Assembly: GCA_041751795.1 (NCBI GenBank)
Contig: JBGSWU010000011.1
Location: forward strand, 1 to 45,544
DNA: 45,544 nucleotides
Reading direction: 5' to 3'
DNA from: Thermomicrobiales bacterium
Lineage (GTDB): Bacteria; Chloroflexota; Chloroflexia; Thermomicrobiales; CFX8
This document shows positions 5,238 to 37,120 of this stretch, in pieces (the first letter of the stretch is position 1; each line of letters starts with the position of its first letter). The notes under the pieces were generated by a model. That model was given only the letters and a program-made list of their open reading frames with translations, was not told where the DNA came from and ran no database searches. The translations under genes and the position numbers were made by a program.

Positions 5238-6635
5238 TCAATCCTCGATCGTCGTGAACAGGTTGTTGAGCGATTCTGCAAACGTCGGATGTGCCAGAAC
5301 GGCATTCTGGACGACGGGATAGGGAAGCTTGCCCATCATCGCCAGTTGCACCATCGACATGATCTCGCCACCTTCGATGCCGAGAACCGTGCAGCCAAGG
5401 ATCTGTTTCGTGTCGGCATCGACGATGGCCTTCATGAACCCACGAGTCTCGTCGGTTTCGAGCGCCCGGGCGACCGAACTCATCTTCATCTTCGCGACCT
5501 TGAAGTTGCGTCCCTGCTCGCGTGCTTCGGATTCGCTGATGCCAACCCGCCCCAACTGGGGGTCGATGTACATGACGTATGGCACGAGTCGATCTGCGAT
5601 CGTGTCGTTACCACCTTCGATCAGGTTGGTTCGCAGCACTCGGAAGTCGTCGTACGAGACATGGGTGAAGGCCGGGCCACCTTTGACGTCGCCGACTGCG
5701 TAAATCCCGGGTGCCGTGGTTTCCAACCGCTCGTTTACCTCGACGTAGCCGCGATCGTTGGTCTGGACTCCGGCTGCCTCAAGGTTGAGCATGTCAGTGT
5801 TCGGTATTCGACCAACCCCGACAAGGAGATGTGATCCAGTCAGTTCGCGTTTGGAATCACCGACACTGACCGTCATCGTGATCTTGCCGTCCTGTCCGGA
5901 CGCGACCGTTTCTGCGGTCGCATCAAGCAGCACCTCGATCCCGTCTTCGCGCAGGATCTCGGCAACGGCTTCGGCAACATCATCGTCCTCGCGATTGACC
6001 AGTTTCCTGCCGCGCTGAACGACGGTGACATCGCTGCCGAAGCGCCGGAACATCTGCGCGAACTCGAGTGCCACGTAGCCACCGCCCAGCACGAGCAAGT
6101 GCTCAGGCACGTCGGCGAGTTCCATGATGCTCGTTGAGTCGAGATACTCAATCGTGTCCAGCCCATCAAGATCGGGGGTTCGCGGTCGCTCGCCAGTGTC
6201 GATGATAATCGTCGATGCGCTGAGGTGTTTGGTACCGCCATCGTTTAGCGCCACCTCGATCATTTTCGCTCCGGTGAAGCGCGCTTCACCCATGAGAAGA
6301 TCGACGTTTTCGGTGTTCTCAAGACCGCGCTCGCTTCCACTGCGGAAACTGTCGACGATGTCGCGCTTGCGCTTGCGGACGACTTCCATATCGACGGTTG
6401 GCGCGGGTATCTGCACGCCATAGTCGGCTGCGCGCCGCGCGAGGTGCGCGACCCGCGCGCTGGCGACCATCGTTTTCGTCGGGGTACAGCCGACGTTCAC
6501 GCAGGTTCCTCCAACGTGTTCTCTCTCGATCAGGGCGACGGTCTTTCCGGCTTTCGCGAAGGTGGTTGCCAATGGCCCCCCGCTCTGCCCGGATCCGATC
6601 ACAATGACATCGTAGGTCTGCCGGGGTGTGCTCAT
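5238..6635 (-). CDS. Class-I pyridine nucleotide-disulfide oxidoreductase (FAD/NAD(P), mercuric-reductase or dihydrolipoamide-dehydrogenase-like)
   Basis: MSTPRQTYDVIVIGSGQSGGPLA is the FAD GxGxxG motif. GGTCVNVGCTPTK is the redox-active CxxxxC. LLVLGGGYVALEF is the NAD(P) fold and a C-terminal dimerisation domain follows. AAGGAG precedes ATG 6635. No C-terminal Cys pair, so it is probably not a true MerA. Confidence 0.9.
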   Translation of the reverse strand: MSTPRQTYDVIVIGSGQSGGPLATTFAKAGKTVALIEREHVGGTCVNVGCTPTKTMVASARVAHLARRAADYGVQIPAPTVDMEVVRKRKRDIVDSFRSGSERGLENTENVDLLMGEARFTGAKMIEVALNDGGTKHLSASTIIIDTGERPRTPDLDGLDTIEYLDSTSIMELADVPEHLLVLGGGYVALEFAQMFRRFGSDVTVVQRGRKLVNREDDDVAEAVAEILREDGIEVLLDATAETVASGQDGKITMTVSVGDSKRELTGSHLLVGVGRIPNTDMLNLEAAGVQTNDRGYVEVNERLETTAPGIYAVGDVKGGPAFTHVSYDDFRVLRTNLIEGGNDTIADRLVPYVMYIDPQLGRVGISESEAREQGRNFKVAKMKMSSVARALETDETRGFMKAIVDADTKQILGCTVLGIEGGEIMSMVQLAMMGKLPYPVVQNAVLAHPTFAESLNNLFTTIED

Positions 6636-6804
6636 TCGTGTTCTCCTTGTCACGTCCTGCACCGATGGTTGCACGAAGGATGCCGCACCCGGTCTGCATT
6701 CTTCGTGAGCGGGATTACATCTGATCGCAGGGTTCAGGAAATTGGGATGAGCCGTGATCATCGGCACCTGGTTAGTCACCCGACGAATGATCCCGACGTG
6801 GCAT

Positions 6805-12440: not shown

Positions 12441-12610
12441 CGTTTCGTTCAGGTCATTCGCGTTTCCGGGCAACAACCGTCCGGTTGTACGAGTCTGGAA
12501 GGGGGCCATCGGGAAGGCTGACAGGGGTTTCGGGCTGCTGTGCGCTCAGCATGTCCGTTGGCTGGCGGTATGTTCACCGCCAGGTGTGGTGGTACGGAGG
12601 GAGCACATTG

Positions 12611-15600
12611 GTGAAACCAGTGCCTGCCCGGCGCGTGCGACACGCGTCCGTGGCCGTCTCGGCCGTGATGATCCTCTCGATGTTACTCGTTGGAATTGGC
12701 GGAACCAGTGTTGGTGGCGCGACGGCAACGCAGATGCGAGTCTCGTCCAAGTCCGACGCTGCGATGCGCAAGGTTCACCCGCAACTTCTGCGGGCGGCGA
12801 AGGACTCGCCGGACACCTGGGTCCAGATCCGCGCCTACGCCAAGACCGGAACGGATCTCTCGGCCTACATGTGGGACGCACTTGCTCCCGCCTATGTCGG
12901 GCCGACCGGGTATACGACGATCACCGGCACGATCCTGGCACACAACGTGAGCAAATTGGCTGGTGTCGAGGGCGTCGCCTCGGTCTTCCCGCTGACCGGC
13001 GCTGCCCTCCCGGACCGGAAGTATGACGAGAACCGGACGACGGCACCCGTGCTGAGCGCCGATGTCCAGGCGCGGTTGAGCGAACGGCTCCAGTCCGGCC
13101 AGCGCAACAACTATCCGTACGCGACCCAACCAGTCGCCAATGGCTGGTATGACGTCCTCGGTGGTCACGACTCCCAACTTGCCTGGGAAAAGGGATACAC
13201 CGGCGAAGGCGTCAAGGTCATGGTTAACGACTCGGGCATCGACTTTGCCCACCCTGACCTGATGGGTACGCAGGCACGTGTGACAGACCCGAGTTCGCCG
13301 TACTACGGCTGGCCGTTGCAGTTCGACCAGTTCTCGATGTACCTGCTGGCGCGTGACTTCTATCTCGGTGAGGCGAACATCGCCGCCGGATTTGGTGCGT
13401 ATGCTGATACCAGCACGGTCGTTACTGACGGCAGCGCGTCGTATCAGCCGGTTGATGCCGATGCTCCGTACGATTACACGCTGACCGGCACGAGCATAAG
13501 TGGCGACTACCACATCGGCACCCACCCGGATAACGGGTTGCGGCAGTGGTATCGCCTGATCAACGAGATCGATCTGGCTGATCCACAGGCGCACGACGAG
13601 CGACCAGCGATTCTTGTCGCTGACGAGAGCGTCGCTGGCGTCTACGACACGGTCTACGTTGACCTGAACTTCAACAACGACTTCACCGATGAGAAGCCGC
13701 TTCGCAAGGGTGACGAGATTGGCGGAGCCGACTGGTGGGGCGCCTGGAACCCGGAAACGGGCGACTTCGATCCCGAACCGGACGGCCTCTACGATCAGTC
13801 TGCGGGTATGCTCTACTGGATCGCTGACGGTGTGAACTCTGTCCCGGCTGCCGACTGGTGGTGGGGCATTGGTGCAGCCGGCAATGGCGCGTCTGACGAG
13901 GGCGATCCGGCTTCGGGCAACCTCGTTCTTTTCTCGGTTCAGGACTACATCGCCAGCCCTGGTGGTGACCACGGCCAACTCTGCGCCTCGGGCGTCGCAG
14001 CTCAGGGCATCACGAATGCTCCATCGGCGCTGAACGGCGCGTACCCGACCTACAAGCCCGAGGGCACGAACGGCATGGTCACGGCAGCCGGCAAGGGTGT
14101 TGAACTCATCAACGCCGGTGACTTCTACTCGCTGCTCGGAACCGATGCGTTCTACTTCGCGGCACTCGGTTACGATGGCGTTCCTGGAACCGACGATGAC
14201 ACCCAAATCATGTCAAACTCCTGGGGCTATTCTGAGATCCACAACGATGGCTGGGATCAGATGTCGCGTGAGATCGACTCGATCGTGCGCTTCCTGAACC
14301 CGAGCCTCCTCGTGATGAATTCTGCCGGTAACGGCGCACCGGGCTTCGGCACGACCGGCCATCCCGCTCCAGCCGCTGGTATGTCGATCGGTGCTTCGAC
14401 GCAGTACGGCTCGACCGGCAACTTCGACTCGATCGTCAGCGCCGGGCAGATCACTCATGGTGATGTCGTCTCATGGTCTGGTCGTGGGCCAGGTGCACGC
14501 GGCGATGCTGGAATCAGCCTGCTCGGAAATGGCTCGGTTGGTTCGGGCGCAGCCCCACTGAATGAGTTCTTCTCCGGTGCAAGTTCATGGTACCCATGGG
14601 GTGGCACCAGCCGCTCGACCCCGGTTGCCGCGGGTAACGCAGCACTCATGTATCAGGCGTACTACGAAGCGAACGGCAGTTGGCCGGACTTTGAAACGGC
14701 CAAGGCGATCCTGATGAGTGGCGCAAAGGACCTGAATTACGATCCGTTCCTCCAGGGCGCTGGCTCGATCAACGGCAATCGAGCCGTAGATATCGCCTCA
14801 GGCGGTGGCGGTGCCTATATCACGCCGAGTGAATGGATCGCAGGCTCCTGGCATGGTGAGGAGTACCCAGCGTTTACCAACATCATGAAGCCGGGGGAGA
14901 CTGACGACGCCTGGTTCGAGATCCACAACCCAGGTGACTCCGATCTGCACTTTGACGTCGGCTCGCGCTGGCTGCTGAAGCAGGGTGAGTGGACGAATGA
15001 CTTCACGTCTGCGCCAATCAGCCAGGAGCCGCTCGACTGGGAAGAAGACAATCCAATCGGGACGGCGAGCAGTCTCAACGCACCGCATTACCTTTGGAAC
15101 ATCACTGACTTGGTTCCGGAATCGACCGATGTGCTGGTCGCGCGGATAAATGTTCCGTACGCTCAGTTCGACCCGGCTGGTTCGTACAGCGCGACAGAAA
15201 TCAATATCTGGCGCGTCTACGGCTACGACTGGACCGATGTCAACGGTGACGGCAATCTCTGGACGGACGACAATGGAGATGGTCTGGTCCAGGATGATGA
15301 GCTGGATGCCGGAGAGTACATCCGCTTCAACTACGGCTACAACGCGAGCCAGGCCAACACGCTGACCATCCAGAATCCGCGCGGTCGCGCAACGGACGGC
15401 ATCTTCCTCGGCCTGATCCACGAACAGGCACGAGAGGATGTTCCGCAGACCAACATCAACATGCTGATGGAGTTCTACGAGCAGACCGAGTGGGACTGGG
15501 TCGAATCGTACAGTGACGCAGTGACGGTTCCGGCTGGCGGCAGCAACCGGGTCAACGTCCGTGTCGCCGTCCCGGGTGACGCTCCGCACGGTGCGTACGA

Positions 15601-16840
15601 GGGTGCGATCTGGTTCAACGACGGGTACTGGACGTCGACCGTGCCGGTGACGATCAATGTCGCAGGCACATCCAACATCGAAACTGGCGTCGCCGACGAC
15701 GATACGCTGGATGTCGAGCCGTACTATCGCAACAATCAGGTGTATGGCGCCCAGGCATGGGACTGGCGGCAGGAGTCGGGCGACTGGCGCTTCTACTTCG
15801 CTGACCTGTCCGAGACTCCCGGCGGCCTCGGTCAGCCGGATCAGGGTCAGCGCTACTTCATGGTAGATTCCTGGTGGGAACACATGCCTACCGACGTCAA
15901 TGTTCACATCTATGGCCCAACGCTGGACTGCTTTACGGGTCTGGAAGACTGCGCTGGCTTGTTCGATCCGTACAATCCGGCAACTTACGGTCCGTACACG
16001 CTCGAACGACTCGGCGGCAGTGACGAGTTCTACGTCGGGTCCGGTGTCTTCCTGACAGCAACGTCGAGTGGAACGAACCGTGAGTTCGTGGCGGCCCCGT
16101 ACGTTCCGGGCCTCAACGAAGTCATGCTCGACAACGTGAACTTCGCTTCGGCTGAGCAGGCTGAATCATTCGGCATGCAAGCTGGTGCGCTGTCCGTCTC
16201 GGTTGCGCCAATCGACGTGTCACGGCCATCCGGGAATCCGGGCTTCCTGATTCAGGAGCAGGTCGTATCGACGATGGATCTTTCCGGACTGGTCGTCCAA
16301 GGCTTTGGCCTGAGCCGCCCAGAGGTCAAGACTGGCCTGCCGATCAGTCAGGACGATCCAAATGATCCATTCACCGCCAGCTACACCGAGCAGTTCACCG
16401 TCGGCAACGCTGGTCTGCTGGACATCTCGACGGCTGGACAGGATGGCGATGACCTCGACATCTACCTGCTGTATGACTTCAACGGCGACGGTGAATTCAC
16501 CGCTGATGAACTGGTGGGCGCATCGACAACGCCGACTGCCGACGAGCACATCCGGATCACGCTGCCTGCGGCTGGTGAATACAAACTGCTGGTCCAGGGG
16601 TGGGCGATCCCGACGGAAGAGTCGACGTTCGATCTGTCGATCAACATCGTCCAAGGTGACGACATCACCGTCACCGATCTGCCGCAAGGCCAGATCATCC
16701 CTGGCGTTCGCTACAACTTCACGATCGAGTTCAGCCCGGAGGGTGTTGAGCCAGGTATCTACGAGGGCCTGATCGCACTTGGCCCACCGGAAGGACCCGC
16801 CGCAATCCTGATCCCGGTGACCTACGAGATTCGGGAATAA
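12611..16840 (+). CDS. Very large secreted subtilisin-family (S8) serine peptidase with C-terminal accessory domains
   Basis: Catalytic Asp in VMVNDSGIDFAHPDL (codon 13229-13231), His in GGDHGQLCASG (13970-13972), Ser in GGTSRSTPVAAGNAALMY (14609-14611). Signal/anchor VKPVPARRVRHASVAVSAVMILSMLLVGIGG. GTG 12611 lies 7 nt after GGAGGGAG. Asp-rich Ca-binding-like loops (DVNGDGNLWTDDNGDGLVQDDELD and YDFNGDGEFTADELVG). Confidence 0.9.
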   Translation: MKPVPARRVRHASVAVSAVMILSMLLVGIGGTSVGGATATQMRVSSKSDAAMRKVHPQLLRAAKDSPDTWVQIRAYAKTGTDLSAYMWDALAPAYVGPTGYTTITGTILAHNVSKLAGVEGVASVFPLTGAALPDRKYDENRTTAPVLSADVQARLSERLQSGQRNNYPYATQPVANGWYDVLGGHDSQLAWEKGYTGEGVKVMVNDSGIDFAHPDLMGTQARVTDPSSPYYGWPLQFDQFSMYLLARDFYLGEANIAAGFGAYADTSTVVTDGSASYQPVDADAPYDYTLTGTSISGDYHIGTHPDNGLRQWYRLINEIDLADPQAHDERPAILVADESVAGVYDTVYVDLNFNNDFTDEKPLRKGDEIGGADWWGAWNPETGDFDPEPDGLYDQSAGMLYWIADGVNSVPAADWWWGIGAAGNGASDEGDPASGNLVLFSVQDYIASPGGDHGQLCASGVAAQGITNAPSALNGAYPTYKPEGTNGMVTAAGKGVELINAGDFYSLLGTDAFYFAALGYDGVPGTDDDTQIMSNSWGYSEIHNDGWDQMSREIDSIVRFLNPSLLVMNSAGNGAPGFGTTGHPAPAAGMSIGASTQYGSTGNFDSIVSAGQITHGDVVSWSGRGPGARGDAGISLLGNGSVGSGAAPLNEFFSGASSWYPWGGTSRSTPVAAGNAALMYQAYYEANGSWPDFETAKAILMSGAKDLNYDPFLQGAGSINGNRAVDIASGGGGAYITPSEWIAGSWHGEEYPAFTNIMKPGETDDAWFEIHNPGDSDLHFDVGSRWLLKQGEWTNDFTSAPISQEPLDWEEDNPIGTASSLNAPHYLWNITDLVPESTDVLVARINVPYAQFDPAGSYSATEINIWRVYGYDWTDVNGDGNLWTDDNGDGLVQDDELDAGEYIRFNYGYNASQANTLTIQNPRGRATDGIFLGLIHEQAREDVPQTNINMLMEFYEQTEWDWVESYSDAVTVPAGGSNRVNVRVAVPGDAPHGAYEGAIWFNDGYWTSTVPVTINVAGTSNIETGVADDDTLDVEPYYRNNQVYGAQAWDWRQESGDWRFYFADLSETPGGLGQPDQGQRYFMVDSWWEHMPTDVNVHIYGPTLDCFTGLEDCAGLFDPYNPATYGPYTLERLGGSDEFYVGSGVFLTATSSGTNREFVAAPYVPGLNEVMLDNVNFASAEQAESFGMQAGALSVSVAPIDVSRPSGNPGFLIQEQVVSTMDLSGLVVQGFGLSRPEVKTGLPISQDDPNDPFTASYTEQFTVGNAGLLDISTAGQDGDDLDIYLLYDFNGDGEFTADELVGASTTPTADEHIRITLPAAGEYKLLVQGWAIPTEESTFDLSINIVQGDDITVTDLPQGQIIPGVRYNFTIEFSPEGVEPGIYEGLIALGPPEGPAAILIPVTYEIRE

Positions 16841-16901: not shown

Positions 16902-17107
16902 TGTGTCCTGACAGTCACCGGATGTGTGCCGCATGCCTTGCGTGACAATCTGACACCTTTCCTCGCGACTTCCCGCGCATCGCGCTATGATGGATAGCGT
17001 TCCGCTACGGGTATTCGGTCATTGGGGATGATCGATGCTGAACGGGTACGGTGGAACGTGACCAGCGGTTGACACTGAGGAACATATACGAAGCGAAGGG
17101 GGCGACG

Positions 17108-18913
17108 ATGGCGTTGGCCAGTCTGCACACCACGCGCACCGTCAAGGTGTTGTCTGTCATGCTCGCGTTGGGCATGCTCGGGCTAGGGATTGTGAACGTG
17201 CTTGCGGTCGCACCCGCGACACCAGAGTTTGATCGTACCTGGGCGCGGACTGACAAGCCGGTGGCCGATGGCAATGTTGACCGGACATGGATGTGGGGGC
17301 CGGAAGCCAATACCGGAGCGATTGAAGAATCGTATGACGAGTCGCCGGAGGGCGTTAGAACAGTCCAGTACTACGATAAGAGTCGGATGGAGATCACCCA
17401 TCCAGATGCCGTCGATGATGGCGTCTGGTATGTCACGAACGGTTTGCTCGTCAACGAGTTGATTTCAGGCCGGGTGCAGGTCGGTGACACGCTTTTCCAG
17501 GTGCGCCAGCCAGCTGAAGACATCAATGTTGCTGGTGATCCGGACGACGTAAACGGACCGACCTACGAGACCTTCAGTCATCTGCTCGATCTTCCACCGC
17601 TGGCCGACGGCGCTCCCGTGATTCAGCGTCTGGCCCGCGATGGCACGATCACTGACGATCCATCGCTCGCTGACGCCGGCGTGACCGCTGCCTATCGTGT
17701 CCAGGTGATCGGGATCGATCATCAGATTGCCTCGCCATTCTGGGAGTTCATGATCTCTCAGGGGATCGTCTACGAAGACGGCGAGTTCGTTGAGGACGCG
17801 TTGTTCCAGAATGCGTTCTACGCGACCGGGTATCCCGTTGCCGAAGCGTACTGGGCGAGTGTCAAGGTGAAGAACACTGTCCAGGATGTCCTGATGCAGT
17901 GCTTCGAGCGACGCTGCCTGACCTACACGCCGGGCAACGAGGATGGCTGGCAGGTCGAGGCCGGTAACGTTGGCCAGCACTACTATCGCTGGCGCTATCC
18001 AGACGTCCCAACGCCGACACCAACCAGTACGCCGACCGAAACGCCAGCTGGAACAGCAACCAGCACAGCCACGAACACAGCTACGAGCACGCCGACTGCA
18101 ACACCAGTACCGCTGGCAGACGAGCGCTTGCTTATTGCTAACCTGAGAGGTGCGACAACCGCTGCTGCGGGGACCGGCGTGGCCTACTTCTATGTCCATG
18201 AGGACGGAAGCGCCATCGACTATCAGATCGTCGTCGCTGACCTCAGCAACATCACCGCTGCGCATATTCACGATGGTAGTGAAGATGAGAATGGCCCGAT
18301 CCTCGTAACATTGTTCGAGGCCGCTGACGGAACTTCAGTCACGCCGAATGGTGTGCTCGTCGAGGGAACGATCGAGTCGGATGATCTTCCAGATGATTTG
18401 ACGATCGCAGAACTGACGAACCTCATGGTGGATAGTGAGGTCTACGTCAACGTCCACACGACAGGTCAGCCAACCGGAGCGATTCGTGGGCAGACCCGGG
18501 TACTCGAGGTGGCCAGGCTGCGCGCAGCGCTCAGCGGCGAAAACGAAAACCCACCTGTCAACACGACCGCGACAGGCGCCGCACTCCTCACCTACGATGC
18601 CGATCTTGGAACCTTGTCGTTCCAGGTCGCCATCAATGGCATAGAGGGGTTGTCAGCGATTCATATTCACGCTGGTTCCGCCAACGAGAATGGGCCGGTT
18701 CTCGCGACGTTGTTCGTCGCGCGTCCGCCGCTCCCGTACTTCTCCGATGTCATCAATGGGACGGTGACCGCCGACGACCTTGAGGACATGACGATGGAGG
18801 AGCTGGTCTACCGGATGCTGACGGGCGACACCTACGTCAATGTCCACACTGGATTCAACCCTGACGGCGAGATCCGCGGCCAGATTGGGATCAGTGTAGG
18901 CGGCGTGGAGTAG
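17108..18913 (+). CDS. Secreted protein: unrecognised N-terminal module (paralog 1), Pro/Thr linker, two CHRD domains
   Basis: ATG 17108 is preceded by AAGGGGG. Signal/anchor VKVLSVMLALGMLGLGIVNVLAVAP. The N-module (FDRTWARTDKPVADGNVDRTWMWGPE...QCFERRCLTYTPGNEDGWQVEAGNVGQHYYRWRYP) is shared with the ORFs at 31523 and 34343. PT linker PTPTPTSTPTETPAGTATSTATNTATSTPTATP. Two CHRD-like units contain AAHIHDGSEDENGPILVTLF and AIHIHAGSANENGPVLATLF. Confidence 0.85.
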   Translation: MALASLHTTRTVKVLSVMLALGMLGLGIVNVLAVAPATPEFDRTWARTDKPVADGNVDRTWMWGPEANTGAIEESYDESPEGVRTVQYYDKSRMEITHPDAVDDGVWYVTNGLLVNELISGRVQVGDTLFQVRQPAEDINVAGDPDDVNGPTYETFSHLLDLPPLADGAPVIQRLARDGTITDDPSLADAGVTAAYRVQVIGIDHQIASPFWEFMISQGIVYEDGEFVEDALFQNAFYATGYPVAEAYWASVKVKNTVQDVLMQCFERRCLTYTPGNEDGWQVEAGNVGQHYYRWRYPDVPTPTPTSTPTETPAGTATSTATNTATSTPTATPVPLADERLLIANLRGATTAAAGTGVAYFYVHEDGSAIDYQIVVADLSNITAAHIHDGSEDENGPILVTLFEAADGTSVTPNGVLVEGTIESDDLPDDLTIAELTNLMVDSEVYVNVHTTGQPTGAIRGQTRVLEVARLRAALSGENENPPVNTTATGAALLTYDADLGTLSFQVAINGIEGLSAIHIHAGSANENGPVLATLFVARPPLPYFSDVINGTVTADDLEDMTMEELVYRMLTGDTYVNVHTGFNPDGEIRGQIGISVGGVE

Positions 18914-23015: not shown

Positions 23016-23196
23016 GATGCGTGCGTTTCCTTTCCTACCGGCATGGGCAATCGACGATATACCAGTGTACCGCCGGTCAGCCGTCGATCGTTGGACGAAG
23101 CGCGGATTATGCTGAGCGGGATTCTTGCAATGGAACAACGCGTATACTAGCGACGGTCATGCCGCTGATCGACTCGCTCTTGACCAAGGCTGGCAC

Positions 23197-26622
<3,426 letters not shown>

Positions 26623-26747: not shown

Positions 26748-26993
26748 ATGGCTCGCCAGCACGCCTCATTCCTCCTGCGTTGTTGGTTTCTCGGCAGCGA
26801 CAGCGAGCGGATCGAGATCGTCCACGTCCAGTCTGGAACGAAAGTCCTCACCCGGTCGGTCGGGTCGGCGATCGAGTGGATCTGTGCGCATGGGGACGCG
26901 ATGACTGTGGATGATCCCGACGGCGATCCGTTGTGCGCGGTCAACAGCGACGAGAGCGAACTGGAGGTGCCATCCAGCCTGAAGCGCGAATGA
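26748..26993 (+). CDS. Small hypothetical protein (81 aa) with N-terminal SFLLRCW...RIEIVHVQSG motif and acidic C-terminal tail
   Basis: GAGGAG lies 5 nt upstream of ATG 26748. No family name recognised. Coding status rests on the strong SD and a protein-like composition. Confidence 0.5.
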   Translation: MARQHASFLLRCWFLGSDSERIEIVHVQSGTKVLTRSVGSAIEWICAHGDAMTVDDPDGDPLCAVNSDESELEVPSSLKRE

Positions 26994-27040
26994 CGGTTGG
27001 TAGCGGTTCAAACAGTGCACAGTTCCAGAAAGGGTCTCAG

Positions 27041-30000
27041 ATGTTTCATCTTACCAACGGCATAACAACCATGAATCGTATGCCCAGTGCCATGCCACGA
27101 TTGATCACGTTCGTCTTCATCGTGGCGATGTTGTTCGCAGCTGCCGGAATGCGCTTCTGGCCCGTGGCAACGGCTTCGGCTGCCGAGGTCGCGCCGCCGT
27201 TCGGTTGGAGCATGCTCCCTCGACATACGGGAACCAGCCTGATTGACCCGAACAACCTCGCCGCTGCTCGCGAGTACGTCAACCCCACCGACGGCTACCG
27301 CGTCCGCTTCGACGGTTGCGACGCGGTCATGGACAACTTCACCAGGACGACGCATACCTACACAATCACCGGCGGGGCGCTCACCGCGCCGAAGGTCGTT
27401 TCCGCGTCCGCTGAAGCATTCATGAATCCACCGAAGCTCGGTGGGGGTTTCGAGCCTTTCGACTGCGCCAGCCTGCGGGTCATTACACCGCTGCAGCAGG
27501 GAACGTACTCAGTCAGTCTTAACGTGACAATGGCTGACGGCTACACAGCCGACTCCGCCCCACAGACGATCGTCGTCAAAGACATCCTGATCATCTCGGT
27601 CGGCGACTCCTACGGCTCCGGTGAGGGCGCGCCCGACAGCTTTGTCAAGTTCGGCCTGCTCGGATACGCAGAAACGCCGGCAGTCTGGCAGGACCAGCGC
27701 TGCCACCGCTCGGCGTGGGCTGGCGCGTCGAAGGCGGCGGCGATCCTCGAACAAAGTGACCCACACACCTCGGTCACCTTCGTCTCGCTGGCCTGCTCGG
27801 GCGCGACGATCAACACGCCGATCGACGACAACCCCGACGACGGCGTCGTCAACATGGCGAAGTACCAGGGTGGCGGACTGCTGACCGGCTACAGTGGGAT
27901 CGAGCACGACGGCAGCTACAACCCAACCAGCTTCCTGCCGCCACAGATGGAGCAGGCGGCCCGGATCGCCAATGGCCGCGCGATCGACGCGCTGACAATC
28001 TCTGGTGGCGGCAACGACATGCACTTCGCGAACGTCATCATCGACTGTGTCCTCAGCGATTGCAGCACCAATACGACGACGGCCAACAGAATCGCCAACG
28101 ACTTTATTCAGTTGGAGATCCGCTATCAGGAACTCGCCGCGTTCATCAACAACGAGCGGGATACATCGGACGTGCCGGCGTTGAACATCACCCCCGACCG
28201 TGTCTTCATCACCGAATACCCGGACCCGACCCGCGACATGGACGGAAGCTGGTGCCAGGTCAATCAACTCGACGATCCGTTGCTTGCCTTCCCCGTCACA
28301 GGCATCACCAGGACAGAGATGGCCTGGGCGTCTGGCAACCTCGTCAAGCCGATGAACCAGGCGATTCAGAACTACGCGACCCAGCATGGCTGGAACTATG
28401 TCACCGGAATTGCCGCCGAGTTCTTTGGCGATCCAGCCAATGGAGTACCCGGCCGCGGCTGGTGCGCACTGGGCGAGGATGCCAACGGCGAGCCGAATAA
28501 CTGGGTCAATCGCTCCGTCCAGGCGCTGGGGATGCAGGGGCCGGTCACCGCCCCACTCGGCCTCTTCGCCTTCTACGGGACGCTTGGCATTGGCCTCTCG
28601 ATCGTGAGCGGTGGTATCTCGCTCGTGCTGACGTTGGTGTCAGCCGCCGTGTTGATCGTCGAACTCAAGGGCACTGCCGGTACCATGCACCCCAACCGGA
28701 TGGGCCAGATGGTCTACGCACGCCATATCGCCTCCGCCGTCCAGAACCGGTTCAACGGCGTCGTGCCACAGCCTGGTGACACGACCCCGCCGGCGATCGC
28801 TCCGGCCCAGAACATCACTGTTGAGACGCTGGACGCCGCCGGAGCGATCGTCAACTACCCGATCCCGGCCACGACCGACAACGTTGATGGACCCGGTCTG
28901 GCGAGTTGCGCTCCGGTGTCAGGCGGCCTCTTCCCAATCGGAACAACGCCTGTCACCTGCTCGGCCCAGGACTCCTCTGGCAACCAGGCGCCGCCGGTCA
29001 ACTTCTCGGTCACGGTTGAGCCGACCACAGGGGCGCTGCCTGATCCAGCGGTTGTCCGAACCTCGCTTCGCTCCGGCTGCACGTATGCCAATAGTGACGA
29101 CCAGTCGATCGAGAATGGCGCCGGTCCGGTCTCTTTTGACGGCACGAATGTCACCGGTTACGCAGGCGTCGACGCCCTGAAAGCCCGCGCCAGCGCCACC
29201 AACGACGACTGCGGCATGCGCGTTACCTCGGCAATGAATCTGACGGTCGGCGCTGGTGAGACCAATCTGGTCGACGGCGATCCCGTCCTGCTGGTCGTCA
29301 CGCTCGGCCTTGACGGTACGCTGACAACGTCGGCTGACGACAATCAGGTCGCCATCGCGGAGATGGCTGCCAACTACTCAATCGCTGAAACAAACTGCCT
29401 GAGCCCAGGGCCGAGCCCAGCGTTATTTGGTGATGACGGCGGCTACTGCCCTTCGATCGTCGACTTCAGCGCGAGCATCGACATGGATCAGTACGGCGGC
29501 GCGACCGATCAGTGGTACGCTCGCGCGATGTGGTCGGTCACGAGCAACGTCGGTGACGAGCAGTCCGATTTCGCCGATATCTACTGCGACGACGGCTGCG
29601 CCGATCCGGTCCGCTTGCCATTCAACACTGGCGTTCGTACCGTTATTTTCGAGTCCTTCGTTGGCGCGCGACTGAGCGTCAGCGGCATGCTGGACACCTT
29701 CGCGACCGGCTACCTCGGCGCAACCGCCGTCTCCGACTTTGCCAACACTTTCTCGCTGGGCGTCGTCCAGCCAGCAGCGGGCTTCGAGGGGTTGAGCATC
29801 GACTATACCCAGGAGGTCATCAACCAGTCGCCGACCGTCGAGATTGCCGGACCATATAGCGTCGAGGAGGGCGACTCGGTCACGCTGACCGCGTCAGGTA
29901 ACGACCCCGAGGGTAGCGCACTGACCTACGTCTGGGACCTCGACGGTGATGGCGAGTACGAGACGAGTGGCCAGGACGCCACGTTCTCCGCAGCCGCGAT

Positions 30001-31330
30001 CGACGGTCCGGCCAGCCAGCCAATCGCCGTCCAGGTCACTGACGCTGCCGGGGCAAGCGCCAATGCCAGCGGGACGATCGAGATTCTCAACGCAACGCCG
30101 GTCGTCATTGCCGGTGACGGCCAAACGATTGACGAGGGTAGCCAGTTCGCCGCGACCGGTTCGTACAGTGATGAGGGGACGCTCGACACGCATACCGCGA
30201 CCGTGAACTACGGCGATGGCAGCGGCGACGAGCCGCTGACCCTGAACGTCGATCGGTCGTTCGCGCTGGCGCATTCCTACAGCGACAACGGGACGTACGT
30301 CGCGACCGTCAGCGTCACCGACGACGATGGTGCGACTGGGACAGTGGCGACGACGATCACCGTCAACAACGTTGCGCCAACGGTGACGCTCGGCGACGAC
30401 GCGACTCTGCGCCGTGGCGAAACGCTCATGAGCAGCGGCTCATTCGCCGATCCCGGCACCGACGACTGGACGGCGACCGTCGACTACGGTGATGGCTCGG
30501 CGACCGAGGCGCTCACCCTCAACGCCGATGGCACGTTCACACTGGGGCACGTCTATACGAGTGCCGGGGCGTTCACGGTGAGTGTCTGCGTCAGCGACGA
30601 CGACAGCGGCCAGGGCTGCGACACGCTCGGCGTGACCGTCACCCCGTACGCCATCTTCGCCGGCGGCGACGACTGCGGCTCAGGCAGCGCTTACACGATC
30701 GAGTGGAGTGGCAGTACGGGAACGCTCTACGGCGATCTGCACTCGAACAGTGGGCTGAAAGTCAGCGGTTCCAAAAACACCGGCAACGGCAGCGCCAGCT
30801 ATCGCTGTCAGGTCAAGGTCAGTGGCAGCCAGAATACCTTCACATCGGGGCCAAACAATTTGACCGAGACGCGCCCCTGGCCGGTGCAGATGGACGCCAC
30901 CTCCTTCACCTGCGATGTCACGGTTGCTGGCAAACTCGACCTTTCGAAGGACGGTGTCTGGTGGGTCGGCGGGACGAAGACCAGCCAGCAACTCGCGTCG
31001 CTGACGCTGTGCGCCGATGAGATCACGCTCGGCGACTCGAACATCACCGGCAGCGTCACGCTCGTAGCCGAGCGGATCAGTCTGAGTGGCAGCAACATCC
31101 AGCTGACTGCTCACCAGCACAGTGTCCTGATCTTCGCGACTGGCGGTGACAAGAAAGCCATCAAAGTCAGTGGCAGTACCAGCCAACTGGTAGGCGATTT
31201 CGTCGCTCGTGCCGGTGGCATCGACCTCTCAGGATCAGGCAGCCAGATCTTCGGAGCGGTTATCGGCTGGACGGTCAAGCTCGTCGGCAGTAACTGGACG
31301 GTCGACGCACGGGCGACGGTCACTCCATAG
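27041..31330 (+). CDS. Giant secreted multidomain protein: SGNH/GDSL-type hydrolase, HYR domain, PKD-like repeats, C-terminal beta-helix-like repeat region
   Basis: Signal peptide MPRLITFVFIVAMLFAAAGMRFWPVATASA. SGNH blocks are VGDSYGSGEGAP (Ser codon 27608-27610), LACSGATI, ISGGGNDMHF and MHPN (His 28688-28690). HYR-like PPAIAPAQNITVETLDAAGAIVNYPIPATTDNVDGPGLASCAPVSGGLFPIGTTPVTCSAQDSSGNQA. Three or four PKD-like units (WDLDGDGEYE, VNYGDGSG, VDYGDGSA). The tail has repeated (K)VSGS.. / G.V.L beta-strand motifs. Start ATG 27041 (AAAGGG upstream); 27071 or 27080 are possible. Confidence 0.85.
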   Translation: MFHLTNGITTMNRMPSAMPRLITFVFIVAMLFAAAGMRFWPVATASAAEVAPPFGWSMLPRHTGTSLIDPNNLAAAREYVNPTDGYRVRFDGCDAVMDNFTRTTHTYTITGGALTAPKVVSASAEAFMNPPKLGGGFEPFDCASLRVITPLQQGTYSVSLNVTMADGYTADSAPQTIVVKDILIISVGDSYGSGEGAPDSFVKFGLLGYAETPAVWQDQRCHRSAWAGASKAAAILEQSDPHTSVTFVSLACSGATINTPIDDNPDDGVVNMAKYQGGGLLTGYSGIEHDGSYNPTSFLPPQMEQAARIANGRAIDALTISGGGNDMHFANVIIDCVLSDCSTNTTTANRIANDFIQLEIRYQELAAFINNERDTSDVPALNITPDRVFITEYPDPTRDMDGSWCQVNQLDDPLLAFPVTGITRTEMAWASGNLVKPMNQAIQNYATQHGWNYVTGIAAEFFGDPANGVPGRGWCALGEDANGEPNNWVNRSVQALGMQGPVTAPLGLFAFYGTLGIGLSIVSGGISLVLTLVSAAVLIVELKGTAGTMHPNRMGQMVYARHIASAVQNRFNGVVPQPGDTTPPAIAPAQNITVETLDAAGAIVNYPIPATTDNVDGPGLASCAPVSGGLFPIGTTPVTCSAQDSSGNQAPPVNFSVTVEPTTGALPDPAVVRTSLRSGCTYANSDDQSIENGAGPVSFDGTNVTGYAGVDALKARASATNDDCGMRVTSAMNLTVGAGETNLVDGDPVLLVVTLGLDGTLTTSADDNQVAIAEMAANYSIAETNCLSPGPSPALFGDDGGYCPSIVDFSASIDMDQYGGATDQWYARAMWSVTSNVGDEQSDFADIYCDDGCADPVRLPFNTGVRTVIFESFVGARLSVSGMLDTFATGYLGATAVSDFANTFSLGVVQPAAGFEGLSIDYTQEVINQSPTVEIAGPYSVEEGDSVTLTASGNDPEGSALTYVWDLDGDGEYETSGQDATFSAAAIDGPASQPIAVQVTDAAGASANASGTIEILNATPVVIAGDGQTIDEGSQFAATGSYSDEGTLDTHTATVNYGDGSGDEPLTLNVDRSFALAHSYSDNGTYVATVSVTDDDGATGTVATTITVNNVAPTVTLGDDATLRRGETLMSSGSFADPGTDDWTATVDYGDGSATEALTLNADGTFTLGHVYTSAGAFTVSVCVSDDDSGQGCDTLGVTVTPYAIFAGGDDCGSGSAYTIEWSGSTGTLYGDLHSNSGLKVSGSKNTGNGSASYRCQVKVSGSQNTFTSGPNNLTETRPWPVQMDATSFTCDVTVAGKLDLSKDGVWWVGGTKTSQQLASLTLCADEITLGDSNITGSVTLVAERISLSGSNIQLTAHQHSVLIFATGGDKKAIKVSGSTSQLVGDFVARAGGIDLSGSGSQIFGAVIGWTVKLVGSNWTVDARATVTP

Positions 31331-31522: not shown

Positions 31523-34141
31523 ATGTTTCGCGTTGAGCATCTCGTGTTGGTATTCCTGCTGCTGGGCACGCTTGTCTCAATCCAGCCGTCCCGTGCAGCT
31601 CCTGTGGCCAACGATCCGTTCCAGCGCACGTGGCAGCGCACCGATAAGCCGGTTGCCGACGGTGCCGTTTCGCGAACCTGGATGTGGGGGCCGGAGCCGT
31701 TCACCGATGCGAAAACCGAGGCATATGCCGAGTCGCCGGACGGGACGCGGACGGTTCAGTACTTCGACAAGTCGCGGATGGAGATCACCCAGCCGGGTGG
31801 CGACCAGTCTTCGCCGTGGTACGTCACGAATGGGTTGCTCGTTGTCGAGTTGATGTCCGGTCGGATGCAGGTCGGTGACAACCTGTTCGAGGAACGGTTG
31901 CCTGCTGCGGTGAATGTGGCTGGCGACCCTGACGACCCGCTGACCTACGCCGTCCTTGCTGGGTTGCGCGAACATGCATCGCTGGCAACCGGGACGACGA
32001 TTATCCATCGCATCGATGCGAACGGTCAGGTGACCGACGATCCGTCGTTGGGCAACTACGGCGTCACGGCGGTGACCCACGTTCCGGAAACGAACCACAC
32101 CGTCGCCAGCCCATTCTGGGATTTCATGACGGCGTCGGGAATCGTCTATGAGAACGGCGGAATGACGACCGCGCCGCTGTTCGCTAGCGCGTACTACGCG
32201 ACCGGCCTGCCGATCACCGAAGCGTACTGGGCCGATGTCAAGGTGGATGGCCAGCAACGCGAAGTGCTGCTGCAATGCTTCGAGCGCCGATGCCTGACGT
32301 ATACGCCCGGTAACGATCCCGCCTGGCAGGTCGAGGCCGGCAACGTCGGGCAGCACTACTATCGCTGGCGATATCCCGATGCGAACCCTGGCCCCTCGCC
32401 GCTGGCCAACGATCTGGCGCGCAAAGTGACCCAGGCGACGAGTGACGATGCACGTTATGAGGCGCTGCTGGATGTGATGGCCGCGCTCCATGTCGGCGTC
32501 TACACTGGTTCGGGACAAATGATCGTCGGCGGTGCGGAGCGTGGAGCGGCTGACTTTTATCTCTACGATGTCGAGGTGCGGATGATGGCCGGAGCCATTG
32601 GCCGCGGCCAGACCTTCGGCGCCGTCGATCTGGCGATGCAATTGACGGCGATGGGCCTGTTGCCGGAGGGGCAGACGCTCGATCCGAATGTCTTCCGGTC
32701 GGCGGTCCTGACGATTGTCGAGCAGGCAGCAAAGGCACCAAACGAGTTCACATCGCTGTCACCACTGCTGGTGCGTCAACTTGGACTGAGCCAGTCGGCC
32801 CCGTTCGATCTGTTCGACGATGTTTCGCTGGACACGATGCGTTTTGATCCGCTGAGCTACTTTCTCCTGCTGGCCCATGCAAGCATTCCGTTGATCGAGG
32901 AGCATCTGCCTCTGGAGAATGGCGCGTCGTCGGAGTTGGTTGCGCAGTCGAACGGCGTCCTCAAGGCTGTTGTCGTCGATCCGTGCAAACCAGGCGGATT
33001 CCTTGGTGAGGCGTTCAAACATTCCTACGGTTGGTTGAAAAACGCCGCCGACTTGATGTCGTTGATTCCACAGGGTGTCGCCAAGGCATCCGGCGTTGTC
33101 GACGCGATTCATGGCGCGATCCTGGCCTACTCGATCGGCGTGACCGAACTCGATCAGCGTCTCGAAACACACTATGGTCCAGGTGGCCACGAGAATCAGG
33201 CAGGGCAGGCTATCACCTTCCGGATCAAGGTCGAGATGCGTGATGCGCTACCGCAGACATTGATCGATTGCGGCTGGATCCTTGGGACAGATTTCCCGGC
33301 GAAAGGTCCGATCGAAGGCGTTTCAGTCCACTGGTTCTGGGACAATCTTGAAGATCACGGCGAGGTCAACTGCGGTAACGCTTGTGCCACCGGTGGCGGC
33401 AGCGGGCTGTCGATTGACGCGACCGGTCCGGACGGCATCGCCCGGATGACCTTCCAGCCGAAGAATGAGGAAAACCCCGACGAGGGCTGGATCGTTGAGG
33501 AGCACGGAACCGTCACGGGGGTCGCGCTGTACCAGTCCAAGTTCACGAACCTGCTCGGTTCCTATGCGCAGTATCTGACACCGAAGTCGGGTGCCACCCG
33601 CTGGGTCGTCAAGTGGCACGAGGTACCGGGCTGGGACGTCGAGATGAAGTTGACGTACAGCGTCAAAACGCAGATCGGCAGTGACGGTTGGCACCGCTGG
33701 GGCAACGGCAGCATGACCTTCACGGCACACATCGACTCTCAGCGCTTTGAGGAGCAACAGACTGGCTGGTTGGTCAGCGTCGCTGGCTCAGGCTCGGGTA
33801 CGTATGGTTACACGACGAACCCACCGGTCAGTTGTTCGTGGTCAGGCGCCTGGCAGCGGCCGCAACATGCCGTCGAGATCCTCGATCGAGACCAGTTGCT
33901 TGTCGACTTCATTGGCGGCCTGGGGCCAGTGCCTGCACCTGGAGTCTCCGGCACGACTCATCCATTCGACGGGGATTGCGGCATCGCAGCAGACATCGGA
34001 CTGATCCCTTCACATTTTCCGCCCGCCTTCTCACTCAAGACGGAGGAGACGCAGGTGTTCGATGTCGCCCCACAGGGCATGGAACTTGACACAGGCACGA
34101 TCACCTGGGAGATCACGGTCACTCCGACTACTCAACCGTAG
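31523..34141 (+). CDS. Secreted protein, paralog 2 of the N-module family (872 aa), otherwise unrecognised
   Basis: GGAGG lies 10 nt upstream. Signal peptide MFRVEHLVLVFLLLGTLVSIQPSRA. N-module DPFQRTWQRTDKPVADGAVSRTWMWGPE...QCFERRCLTYTPGNDPAWQVEAGNVGQHYYRWRYP. Collinear with the gene at 34343 over most of its length. Confidence 0.85.
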   Translation: MFRVEHLVLVFLLLGTLVSIQPSRAAPVANDPFQRTWQRTDKPVADGAVSRTWMWGPEPFTDAKTEAYAESPDGTRTVQYFDKSRMEITQPGGDQSSPWYVTNGLLVVELMSGRMQVGDNLFEERLPAAVNVAGDPDDPLTYAVLAGLREHASLATGTTIIHRIDANGQVTDDPSLGNYGVTAVTHVPETNHTVASPFWDFMTASGIVYENGGMTTAPLFASAYYATGLPITEAYWADVKVDGQQREVLLQCFERRCLTYTPGNDPAWQVEAGNVGQHYYRWRYPDANPGPSPLANDLARKVTQATSDDARYEALLDVMAALHVGVYTGSGQMIVGGAERGAADFYLYDVEVRMMAGAIGRGQTFGAVDLAMQLTAMGLLPEGQTLDPNVFRSAVLTIVEQAAKAPNEFTSLSPLLVRQLGLSQSAPFDLFDDVSLDTMRFDPLSYFLLLAHASIPLIEEHLPLENGASSELVAQSNGVLKAVVVDPCKPGGFLGEAFKHSYGWLKNAADLMSLIPQGVAKASGVVDAIHGAILAYSIGVTELDQRLETHYGPGGHENQAGQAITFRIKVEMRDALPQTLIDCGWILGTDFPAKGPIEGVSVHWFWDNLEDHGEVNCGNACATGGGSGLSIDATGPDGIARMTFQPKNEENPDEGWIVEEHGTVTGVALYQSKFTNLLGSYAQYLTPKSGATRWVVKWHEVPGWDVEMKLTYSVKTQIGSDGWHRWGNGSMTFTAHIDSQRFEEQQTGWLVSVAGSGSGTYGYTTNPPVSCSWSGAWQRPQHAVEILDRDQLLVDFIGGLGPVPAPGVSGTTHPFDGDCGIAADIGLIPSHFPPAFSLKTEETQVFDVAPQGMELDTGTITWEITVTPTTQP

Positions 34142-34201
34142 TCCACCGAGAATCGCTGAAGGCGAGACCGGCTTGGGATGTCTTTTCCTGAGCCGGTTCC
34201 G

Positions 34202-34219
34202 CCTGTCCGAATGGACAGG
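34202..34219 (+). terminator. Intrinsic-terminator-like hairpin after paralog 2
   Basis: CCTGTCC, loop gaat, GGACAGG, followed by TGCGTTTCT. A second 8-bp hairpin GGCTGGCA-gtgt-TGCCAGCC lies at 34285-34304. Confidence 0.5.
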
Positions 34220-34342
34220 TGCGTTTCTACCCTATCGTCCATAGTGGCACAACATTCCGTCTAACTATCCTGCTCAATGGTTTCGGCTGGCAGTGTTGCC
34301 AGCCGTGTCTGTGATCAAGGTTGATCTGAGCAAGGGGGATCG

Positions 34343-37120
34343 ATGCACCGATTCACGAGACCCGTTCATCTGCTGGCGATCATGGTTGTTCTGACGACGT
34401 TCATGACGAGCGTCCCGGCTGCCAGCGGTGAGCCGATTGCGACCGACCCATTCGAGCGCACCTGGCAACGGACCGATAAGCCGGTCAGAGATGACGGGTT
34501 ACAGCGAACCTGGATGTGGGGTCCAGAGCCGTTCACCGACGCGAAGACTGAATCCTATGCGGAAGCACCGGGCGGCACGCGAACGGTTCAGTACTTCGAC
34601 AAGTCCCGGATGGAAGACAACAATTATCGCGGGTCGGCTCCGTGGGATGTCACCAATGGCCTGCTCGTCGTCGAGATGATGACGGGGAGCATGCAGGTTG
34701 GTGACAATCAGTTCGAGCAGCGTCAGCCAGCGCAGATCAATGTCGCTGGCGACCCCGGCGATCCGCTGACGTACGCCGTTCTGGCGGGTGTTCGGAGTCA
34801 CGCGCCGCTGGCAATCGGCACGACGATCACCCAGCGCATCAACGCCTCTGGTGAGGTCAGCGATGACTCATCGCTGGCGACCTACGGTGTGACTGCTACC
34901 ACGCTGGTGGATGCTTCGGGGCACACAGTCGCCAGTCCGTTCTGGGACTTCATGAATGCAACTGGGACGGTCTACGAGAATGGCGGCACGACCAACGCGC
35001 CGTTGTTTGAGAATCCGTTCTACGCGACCGGCCTGCCGATCACTGAAGCGTACTGGGCAGATATCACGCTTGGCGGTGTCCAGCGAGAGATGTTGCTGCA
35101 ATGCTTTGAGCGTCGCTGCCTGACCTACACGCCGGGCAACCCCGCCGAGTGGCAGGTCGAAGCTGGCAATGTCGGCCAGCACTACTACCGCTGGCGTTAC
35201 CCGGAGGCCAACCCTGGCCCGAACGCTACGGCGAATGCGCTCGCCGATGCCGTCACCCAGGCACCAGATGATGCTGCGCGTAAGCAGGCGTTGATGAATC
35301 TTTTCTCGGCGCTCAACGTCGGTGTCTACGCTGGTGATGGGACGATGCTGCTTGGCGGCGCCGAGCGCCGTGCCGAGGACTTCTACCTGTATGAGCTCGA
35401 AGTCGAGATGCTGGCAGGTGCCATCGGTCGTGGTCAGACCTTTGGGATCATCGACCTGGCGATGCAACTGACGACGATGGAGCTGTTACCCGATGGCGAG
35501 ATGTTCGACCCCGAGGTCGTCCGTCAGGCGCTGCTTGGCGGTATTGCCGCCGCCGAAGCGGACCCGAATGCCTTCACGTCCGTCTCTCCGCTGATTGTCC
35601 GGCAGCTCGGGTTGACCCAGATGCAGCCCTACGATCTCTTTGGAGACGTTCCACTCGACACGATCCGGATGGACGCGCTGGCCTACTTCCTTGTTCTGCT
35701 CGACATCACCGTGCCGCTGTTCGCAGACAAGGACATCGAGGCAGGTGCGATGTCGCAACTCATCGCCAACAGCAATGGCATTCTGACTGCCAGCGACCGC
35801 CAGCTTTTGGCCGCCTGCGACCCGCCGACAATGTTCCAGGGCGATCCCTTCAAGGATGCCTACGGATGGACCAAGATCTCGGCTGAACTGTTGCAGCTCG
35901 TCCCGGCAGCCGCCGGTAAGGTGACAGCCGTCCTCGATGGCCTGCACGGGGCGATCCTGGCCTTTTCGGTCGGTGTCACCGAACTCGACCAGCGGTTGGA
36001 GACACATTACGGCCATGAGTCACCCGGTGCGCCATTGACCTTCCGGGTGAAGGTCGAAATGCGCGACGATGTCACCAAGGCGCTCGTCGACTGCGGTTGG
36101 ATCGCCGGGACGACCTTCCCGCCGAAGGGTCCGATCGCTGGCGTCTCGGTCCACTGGTTCTGGGATAACCTCGAGAAGCATGGCCAGATCGACTGCGGCA
36201 ATGCCTGCCCATCCTAGGGTGGCAATGGCCTCTCGATCGACGCGACCGGCCCGGATGGCATCGCGAAGATGACCTTCCGCCCGAACACCGAGGAGGTTCC
36301 CGGTGATGGCTGGGTCGTTGAGGAACAGGGCGTTGTGACTGGCGTGGCGCTTTACCAGTCCAAGTTCACTAACCTGCTTGGCTCGTATGCGCAGTATCTG
36401 ACGCCGAAGTCGGGGGCCACTCGCTGGGTCGTCGAACGCCACGAGCAGCCCGGCTGGAACGTCGAAATGACGGTCGACTACGATGTTGATTCGAGCTGGA
36501 AGCACATCGGATACGATGCCCCCGCCGACTACTTTGCGGAAACAGCCGACGGTTCCGGTAAGTTCACTTTCAAGATGTTCATTCCGATTGCAGCGCTGAA
36601 CGCTGAAGGTAACTACTCGGTTCCCGCCGATGCGAGCGGTCGCGCGTCGGTTGCCCAGACATCGGTCGATTATTCCCAGTGGAGCGCCTACTACCACTGG
36701 GAGTTCGACTGCAACGGATCGTACCAGGGGGCATGGGATACCTACTTCATGTTCGAAGACATTTACAGCGACACCACTGGTGGACGGACCGTCCTATCGA
36801 AGTTGATCCTGTCGCCGTACATTGCGGGGCAGAACTGGACGGTGGGCGGCTGGCACGGTGGTGGTTCCGACTGCCGAGGGATCGTCGACGGTGACTTCGT
36901 CGTTCTGGGATCGCTGCTGAAGAACATTCCGTCCTTCTCGCTCGACAAACTCGGCGAGCAGTCACTCTCTGCCAACTCGTCAGCGGTTTGTAGCAATATC
37001 CGCGAGATGATCATCGGGAAGTGGAACACCATTCCAAACCAGCCGGGTGTACAGCAATCCTGCTCGGTCGACGCCGAGTGGACGATCAATGTGGAGTGGG
37101 CGCAGCAACCAGGACAGTAG
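34343..37120 (+). pseudogene. Secreted protein, paralog 3 of the N-module family, interrupted by one in-frame TAG at 36215-36217
   Basis: Track ORFs 34343..36217 and 36269..37120 share a frame. Read-through CGNACPS*GGNGLSIDATGPDGIAKMTFRPNTEE aligns residue for residue with paralog 2 CGNACATGGGSGLSIDATGPDGIARMTFQPKNEE, including the 17 codons between the TAG and ATG 36269. AAGGGGGA precedes ATG 34343. Signal peptide VHLLAIMVVLTTFMTSVPAASG. Confidence 0.75.

Follow-up and report, generated by a model that had tools for sequence, protein, structure and literature searches.

Which protein domain opens three secreted proteins encoded in a single stretch of genome from a Thermomicrobiales bacterium, and what does it do for them? 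The stretch (hereafter the window) comprises positions 1 to 45,544 of contig JBGSWU010000011.1 (NCBI GenBank assembly GCA_041751795.1; Chloroflexota, Chloroflexia, Thermomicrobiales, CFX8) and has a G+C content of 61%. Three of its open reading frames (ORFs) on the + strand, 17108-18913, 31523-34141 and 34343-37120 (paralogs 1, 2 and 3), begin with the same block of about 254-260 residues, placed directly after a signal peptide. An earlier sequence-only reading had described this block as a shared N-terminal module that matches no named family. We show that the module is a self-folding, portable, secreted, lineage-restricted and expanded domain under purifying selection. It is a new domain family, without a solved structural relative, that falls within a known functional category. 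As to its function, we infer both that it binds the cell envelope and what its ligand may be: the proposal that it retains proteins there non-covalently has, in our judgement, about an even chance of being right.

Three copies of one old module

That the same module opens all three genes is borne out by the ORFs, by an alignment of the copies over 261 columns and by the motifs picked out in the sequence-only reading, which recur in each copy. Copies 2 and 3 are 75% identical, and copy 1 shares 63% identity with copy 2 and 57% with copy 3. The boundaries of the module are those of a block that is conserved across 118-372 homologues. The C-terminal stretch, LxQCFERRCLTYTPGN...WQVEAGNVGQHYYRWRYP (about the last 33 residues), is nearly invariant in the three copies, just as had been claimed.

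The nucleotide sequences add a measure of age. Over the whole module 43-47% of the identical residues are encoded by different codons, and identity at third positions is 0.46-0.52. In the last 40 columns the amino acid identity rises to 82-88%, yet 39-49% of the identical residues differ in codon. Such heavily diverged synonymous sites rule out a recent duplication or gene conversion of the module copies. Because the codons have diverged while the amino acid identity stays high, we conclude that the paralogs are old and that purifying selection on them is strong.

Searches for a named family or a known fold

The proposal that the module belongs to no named family was confronted with both sequence and structure collections, and it held. 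Neither Pfam-A nor NCBIfam matched the module in the whole proteins or in four fragments (E ≤ 10), or in 118 homologues that were scanned singly (E ≤ 1), and the PHROGs profiles gave no match to it either. The precomputed Pfam annotation of the homologues lists partner domains alone, with none over the module. A profile hmmsearch of the PDB sequences returned best matches at chance level (E = 0.9 and 1.9). In the source records the homologues are named 'hypothetical protein' or take their name from the partner, e.g. 'thermonuclease family protein' for WP_012642611 of Thermomicrobium roseum, and our search of the literature found no earlier description of the domain.

AlphaFold2 (AF2) produced a confident model of the 260-residue module from the 118-sequence alignment, with a mean predicted local distance difference test (pLDDT) of 96.5 and a predicted TM score (pTM) of 0.92. 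In a Foldseek comparison of this full model with the PDB no chain reached E < 0.15 and the TM scores did not exceed 0.19; against BFVD no model reached E < 0.3. In order to unmask a local fold match, the C-terminal subdomain of 96 residues was modelled separately. This model is also confident (pLDDT 92.9, pTM 0.81), and its best Foldseek match had E = 0.3, with nothing significant. The top weak matches of this fragment are PH domains (TMq ≤ 0.42), which share a beta-meander followed by a C-terminal helix. With E > 0.3 and short alignments, this resemblance is no evidence of homology.

Anatomy of the module

The predicted structure is beta-rich with short helices. The sequence-only reading had seen a repeated hairpin motif in the module and had taken two of its segments for copies of one ancestral unit. 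The hairpins stand: in the model, unit A consists of a strand (44-50), a turn (D51-K52-S53), two further strands (54-57 and 71-72) and a helix (75-81), and unit C likewise of a strand (218-227), a turn (E228-R229-R230), two strands (231-234 and 244-246) and a helix (249-257). Both are thus beta-hairpins whose tips are charged, and in both a short strand and then a helix come next. The ancestral duplication is not supported by the sequences. Aligning the profile of the whole family with itself (hhalign) gave no off-diagonal match, and aligning residues 40-85 with residues 214-260 gave a score of 8.7, in the register of that reading, against a mean of 9.5 ± 2.4 for column-shuffled profiles; a score at least as high came from 112 of the 200 shuffles. 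We have therefore rejected internal duplication as a demonstrated feature, as the sequences agree no better than shuffles do, and retain just the shared pattern of secondary structure.

The turn of unit C is flanked by two cysteines, the pair that had been put forward as a possible disulfide (QCFERRC). Both are present in 221 sequences, and both are replaced, by L, A or V plus V or I, in about 147 sequences that belong mainly to the Chloroflexia branch; 4 sequences have mixed states. Because the two positions covary almost perfectly, a cross-strand disulfide between Cys226 and Cys231 probably staples this hairpin in the Thermomicrobiales branch. The pattern fits a predicted disulfide that would be dispensable for function.

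Of the columns of the module, 44 are invariant across 49 genomes, including seven Trp or Tyr. The invariant charged residues are D10, R20, E35, R45, D51, K52, R54, E56, E78, D105, R229, R230, E245, H252 and R257. The composition is aromatic (12% W, Y or F, 3% W) and acidic, with a median isoelectric point of 4.8, so that basicity, which might have pointed to an anionic polymer as ligand, is rejected as a clue.

Distribution and architectures of the family

A word-indexed homologue search returned 1,714 proteins at E ≤ 0.001. When HMMER was run exhaustively over representatives clustered at 50% identity, it returned 2,700 at the same threshold and 1,747 at E ≤ 1e-30; the profile held some flanking columns, so the stricter count is the safer one. 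Another 1,548 proteins, again from Chloroflexota, were added by a second search that was seeded with a copy from Ca. Chlorohelix allophototropha, where the module occurs at about 35% identity. A scan of genomes, one for each species, confirmed 190 stretches, all of them in Thermomicrobiales, Thermomicrobium or 'Chloroflexia' assemblies, and all named sources of the module are Chloroflexota (Thermomicrobiales and Chloroflexia/Chloroheliales). The isolate Thermomicrobium sp. CFH 73360 is among the genomes with the module. Single genomes can host many copies, e.g. five in T. roseum DSM 5159, where they lie on the megaplasmid, and at least 10 in one metagenome-assembled genome (CFX8) among the 80 best matches.

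The description of the module as N-terminal proved too narrow. Of 369 full-length modules 286 are N-terminal, 37 C-terminal and 11 internal, and a further 35 stand alone; one protein carries two copies. The stand-alone genes are genuine, lying on contigs 300-765 kb long. In 268 of the 286 N-terminal-class proteins (94%) the module comes directly after a hydrophobic signal region, which places the family outside the cytoplasm, as an envelope-anchoring class would be. A minority of members have twin-arginine-like signals, e.g. P0109 (RRQALKALAAASLAGLF) and P0042 (TRRNLLKAGGAAV). The Pfam TAT_signal model weakly matches 8 of 118 members, and 55 of 365 fit a loose regular expression. From these signals it follows that some module proteins may be exported already folded. 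No sortase-type C-terminal signal or convincing C-terminal membrane anchor was found in any of 374 module proteins.

The suggestion that the domain is portable is confirmed by its fusion to many unrelated partners, from at least 60 Pfam families (two scanned sets gave 50 and 61). These include LTD, Excalibur, SNase, cytochrome c, DUF192, Germane, SGNH, trypsin and C11 clostripain, as well as CAP, CHRD, fn3, DUF11, 3-keto-disaccharide hydrolase, purple acid phosphatase N, pentapeptide repeats and a glucodextranase-N domain. NHL/SGL propellers are present in 21 of 67 larger module proteins, and glycoside hydrolases are rare. Two Chloroflexia proteins (P0358 and P0362) consist of a signal or anchor, the module and a C-terminal class F sortase, an architecture that places a wall-acting enzyme on the module. 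Family-wide, Pro and Thr are over-represented in the linkers behind the module. One module, many unrelated extracellular partners at either terminus and low-complexity linkers are together the pattern of an anchoring class.

Module genes frequently occur in tandem: 17 of 79 loci hold two or three of them in a span of about 6.7 kb, for the most part on one strand, and paralogs 2 and 3 of the window (31523-37120) are likewise adjacent. Beyond such tandem module genes, nothing conserved was found in the gene neighbourhoods of either stand-alone or fused copies.

A proposed role in envelope retention

Chloroflexota are considered monoderm yet multilayered, and to our knowledge essentially no mechanism is known by which they keep proteins at their surface. 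In the mechanism that we propose, the module would be exported behind a Sec signal (with a twin-arginine-like motif in a subset) and would adopt a compact, beta-rich fold. With its surface of invariant aromatic and charged residues it may then bind some conserved constituent of the atypical wall of Chloroflexota, the candidate ligands being a polysaccharide or peptidoglycan component, or a protein of the wall or surface layer. The variable partner, be it CHRD, a nuclease, cytochrome c, a protease, an NHL propeller, a sortase or another domain, would hang from it via the Pro/Thr-rich linker.

Several lines of evidence argue for retention at the envelope: the signal regions and Pro/Thr-rich linkers, the list of partners, the expansion within one lineage, the strong purifying selection, the lack of other C-terminal anchor signals and the type of wall found in the hosts. 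Surface retention is favoured because being kept at the cell is of benefit to cytochrome c, sortases, nucleases and proteases alike, and a carbohydrate-binding module (CBM) that targets substrates is disfavoured by the scarcity of glycoside hydrolases among the partners. The wall of T. roseum is dominated by protein and poor in peptidoglycan, and the hosts have a multilayered envelope and no outer-membrane genes (PMC2615216; PMC13319060); these properties make a lineage-specific anchor plausible. A marginal register in the C-terminal unit that resembles LGFP repeats (P = 0.008, reached by 0 of 100 shuffles) was also counted in favour of anchoring.

By analogy, unrelated partners at either end of the module, together with its internal, solitary and two-copy forms, amount to an architecture typical of the SLH, CWB2, LysM and LGFP anchors. 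The likeness to CWB2 lies in a similar overall size, in the position at one end or the other of many secreted paralogs with unrelated functional domains and in the expansion of the family in one lineage. In the wall proteins of Clostridioides difficile, as PMC4973711 describes them, tandem CWB2 motifs anchor many proteins non-covalently via a wall polymer. The module differs in having no three recognisable repeats and no similarity to CWB2 in sequence or fold (Pfam, PDB and Foldseek). LGFP repeats bind the peptidoglycan-arabinogalactan wall of corynebacteria (PMC11299179). They resemble the module in being small strand-plus-helix units rich in conserved aromatics (Corynebacteriales, MytA/PS1, 6swz), but form a stalk of repeats of about 54 residues with the motif LGxP...Q.FE.G.IYWS..TGA..V.G.I...W in another phylum, unlike the single compact domain of 260 residues described here. 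SLH (PF00395), in Bacillota, Deinococcota and Cyanobacteria, is a terminal module of S-layer proteins and exoproteins that binds a secondary wall polymer. It is helical and usually basic, whereas our module is beta-rich and acidic and has no PF00395 match.

Other results weigh against the anchoring proposal. In its acidity the module differs from the basic domains by which anionic wall polymers are often bound, its eighteen invariant charged or polar residues would also suit an enzyme, and the stand-alone copies lie on long contigs without informative neighbours. A structural link to LGFP failed for both the full model and the fragment in Foldseek. Furthermore, a phage endolysin with the module, which would have backed the proposal strongly, was not found in IMG/VR or INPHARED, a weak negative given the set patterns of the search and the few Chloroflexota phages known. 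INPHARED contained no module match, and the IMG/VR contigs, which are classed as viral (L085-L089, with the module at about 6001-6760 of each locus), contained secreted nucleases of the form module-SNase(-Excalibur) and no lysin. The neighbouring genes there encode DNA methylase/Mrr, ArdC-like, DUF2786/DUF7168 and HipA-like proteins, and these nucleases may be cargo of prophages or integrative elements. WP_012642611 of T. roseum has the same architecture.

Alternative readings

The module could instead be a unit for docking between proteins, with which a proteinaceous wall layer or a regular surface array is assembled, and not a glycan binder. The wall of T. roseum, dominated by protein and with a structured outer layer (PMC2615216), would suit such a unit. 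An interface between proteins would also fit the unusual conservation among paralogs (about 60% identity and the 44 invariant columns), and the acidity of the module and its stand-alone copies are in keeping with it. However, the family is present in Chloroflexia/Chloroheliales too, and the loci revealed neither a partner protein nor a conserved neighbouring gene. We consider this reading unlikely.

Lectin-like targeting of an external ligand, such as an environmental polymer, a biofilm matrix, extracellular DNA or prey cells, in place of the cell's own envelope seems a little less probable again. The aromatic-rich composition with its invariant Trp and Tyr would serve such binding well, and nucleases, proteases, the 3-keto-disaccharide hydrolase and the glucodextranase-N domain are partners that could be directed to it. 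On the other hand, the scarcity of glycoside hydrolases speaks against it, fusions to cytochrome c and sortase would make little sense, and CBMs are usually far less conserved between paralogs.

We regard it as improbable that the module is itself an enzyme, e.g. a wall-remodelling hydrolase or transferase that was recruited beside other activities. The many invariant charged residues (all of those listed above apart from R257) and the existence of stand-alone genes would allow for this, but the module has no similarity to any catalytic family in sequence or fold. Its predicted structure, built of small units of beta-hairpin and helix, offers no obvious catalytic scaffold, and both the protein with two copies and the attachment at either end of existing enzymes are typical of binding modules. 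A bolder suggestion, that the module is not a glycan-binding anchor but a structurally new, phylum-specific envelope-assembly domain that builds or cross-links dozens of secreted proteins into the protein wall of Thermomicrobia, is in our view a similarly long shot.

A further alternative concerns ancestry and not function: the module might be an array of LGFP-type repeats (PF08310 superfamily) that has diverged greatly, and hence belong to a known family. The LGFP profile that we used is shallow, with 18 repeats taken from PDB entry 6swz (reached with an approximate probe sequence) and from eight PF08310 proteins. Every hhalign run against it returned one register, G-Y/L-P-I/T-x-E...Q-x-F-E-x-x-x-L-T-Y-T-P...W-x-V-E-x-G-N-V...W. 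For residues 196-260 of the module the score was 17.7, with the P value and shuffle count given above and a probability of 4.9%, and for the whole module residues 168-251 spanned two repeats at a score that 4 of 100 shuffles reached. Against this, the HH probabilities are just 1-5%, and in the N-terminal 165 residues and the units 20-95 and 125-200 the LGFP signal is no better than in shuffles. PF08310 itself had no match in the whole proteins or the module fragments (E ≤ 10), or in the 118 members (E ≤ 1). In Foldseek 6swz ranked ninth for the full model, with E of about 1 and TM scores of 0.16-0.19, so that the LGFP fold of MytA, a helix with an antiparallel sheet of 3-4 strands, is not recovered, and with the C-terminal fragment, itself confidently modelled, 6swz did not appear in the top 50. 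Ranked third among the non-significant Foldseek matches was a Gordonia phage Lysin A (BFVD A0A3G3M8B4, E = 0.36). Lysins of this kind often bear LGFP-type wall-binding repeats, and the match could be a second faint pointer to LGFP or noise. With a marginal profile signal in the last unit and no structural support, LGFP was rejected as the family of the module; it is a possible, very distant relative of the last 90 or so residues, and descent of the entire module from LGFP repeats is improbable.

Finally, a helper of export or folding (for instance a pro-domain, a chaperone acting within the molecule, or a tag that sorts proteins to a dedicated secretion route) would account for the prevalent position right behind the signal peptide (286 of 369), but is very improbable given the C-terminal, internal and stand-alone forms, the indifference to partner type, the lack of conserved neighbouring machinery and a size and fold that exceed those of a sorting tag.

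The locus

Table 1. Features of the three module genes; positions refer to the window.
Feature	Positions	Strand	Basis
Paralog 1, signal peptide (MALASLHTTRTVKVLSVMLALGMLGLGIVNVLAVAPATP)	17108..17224	+	ORF; start of homologue P0051
Module copy 1, 260 aa	17225..18004	+	Alignment; conserved block of homologues; AF2 pLDDT 96.5
Paralog 1, Pro/Thr/Ala-rich linker	18005..18124	+	Translation; family-wide P/T enrichment of linkers
Paralog 1, two CHRD domains (PF07452) and stop codon	18125..18913	+	Pfam match
Paralog 2, signal peptide	31523..31612	+	ORF translation
Module copy 2, 256 aa	31613..32380	+	Module alignment; homologue search
Paralog 2, body, 586 aa	32381..34141	+	No Pfam or PHROG match
Paralog 3, signal peptide	34343..34444	+	ORF translation
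Module copy 3, 254 aa	34445..35206	+	Module alignment
Paralog 3, body, homologous to paralog 2 body, TAG-interrupted	35207..37120	+	Frame and body comparison

The features of the three genes are collected in Table 1. The likely start of paralog 1 is the ATG at 17108, which is favoured over a GTG at 17051 by homologue P0051 (it begins MALASP...). The fusion of this module copy through a Pro/Thr linker to two CHRD domains had been recognised before, and Pfam agrees (PF07452, E = 2.4e-50, two stretches; the best is residues 491-612 when the ORF is counted from 17051).

Paralogs 2 and 3 do share a body that differs from that of paralog 1 and has no Pfam match, with one correction to the earlier account. 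In paralog 3 an in-frame TAG (36215-36217) stands where paralog 2 has Gly, and the frame stays open to 37120. The context is GNACPS*GGNGLSIDATG, compared with GNACATGGGSGLSIDATG in paralog 2, and past the TAG the frame reads GGNGLSIDATGPDGIAKMTF. The gene may be a nonsense pseudogene, the TAG may be a sequencing error, or it may be read through.

The surroundings of the module genes (12485-16840, 23125-26622 and 26933-31330, all +) encode very large secreted proteins and a large regulator, namely a 1,451-residue S8 subtilase with a PPC domain, a 1,465-residue PKD/HYR protein and a 1,165-residue BTAD-AAA-TPR-LuxR regulator. Together with the module genes they look like an exoprotein-rich island. 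Antisense ORFs of 199-354 residues (- strand; 17465-18271, 31577-32641 and 34868-35467) overlap all three modules. They most likely arose as artefacts from the high G+C content, because they lack support while the products of the + strand have thousands of homologues.

Significance

The module, with a confidently predicted fold that has no solved relative, marks a large and coherent set of extracytoplasmic proteins, and annotation in current use does not see it. A curated family entry is the minimum that it merits.

If the module does retain its partners at the envelope, then the surface proteome of Chloroflexota would become definable from sequence alone, and the domain could be used both as a probe for the ligand in the wall and as a thermostable display tag. 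Should it prove to be an assembly domain, it would open a molecular way into the 'atypical proteinaceous cell wall' of T. roseum, which has long lacked an explanation, and may give insight into how the multilayered envelope of monoderm Chloroflexota is organised.

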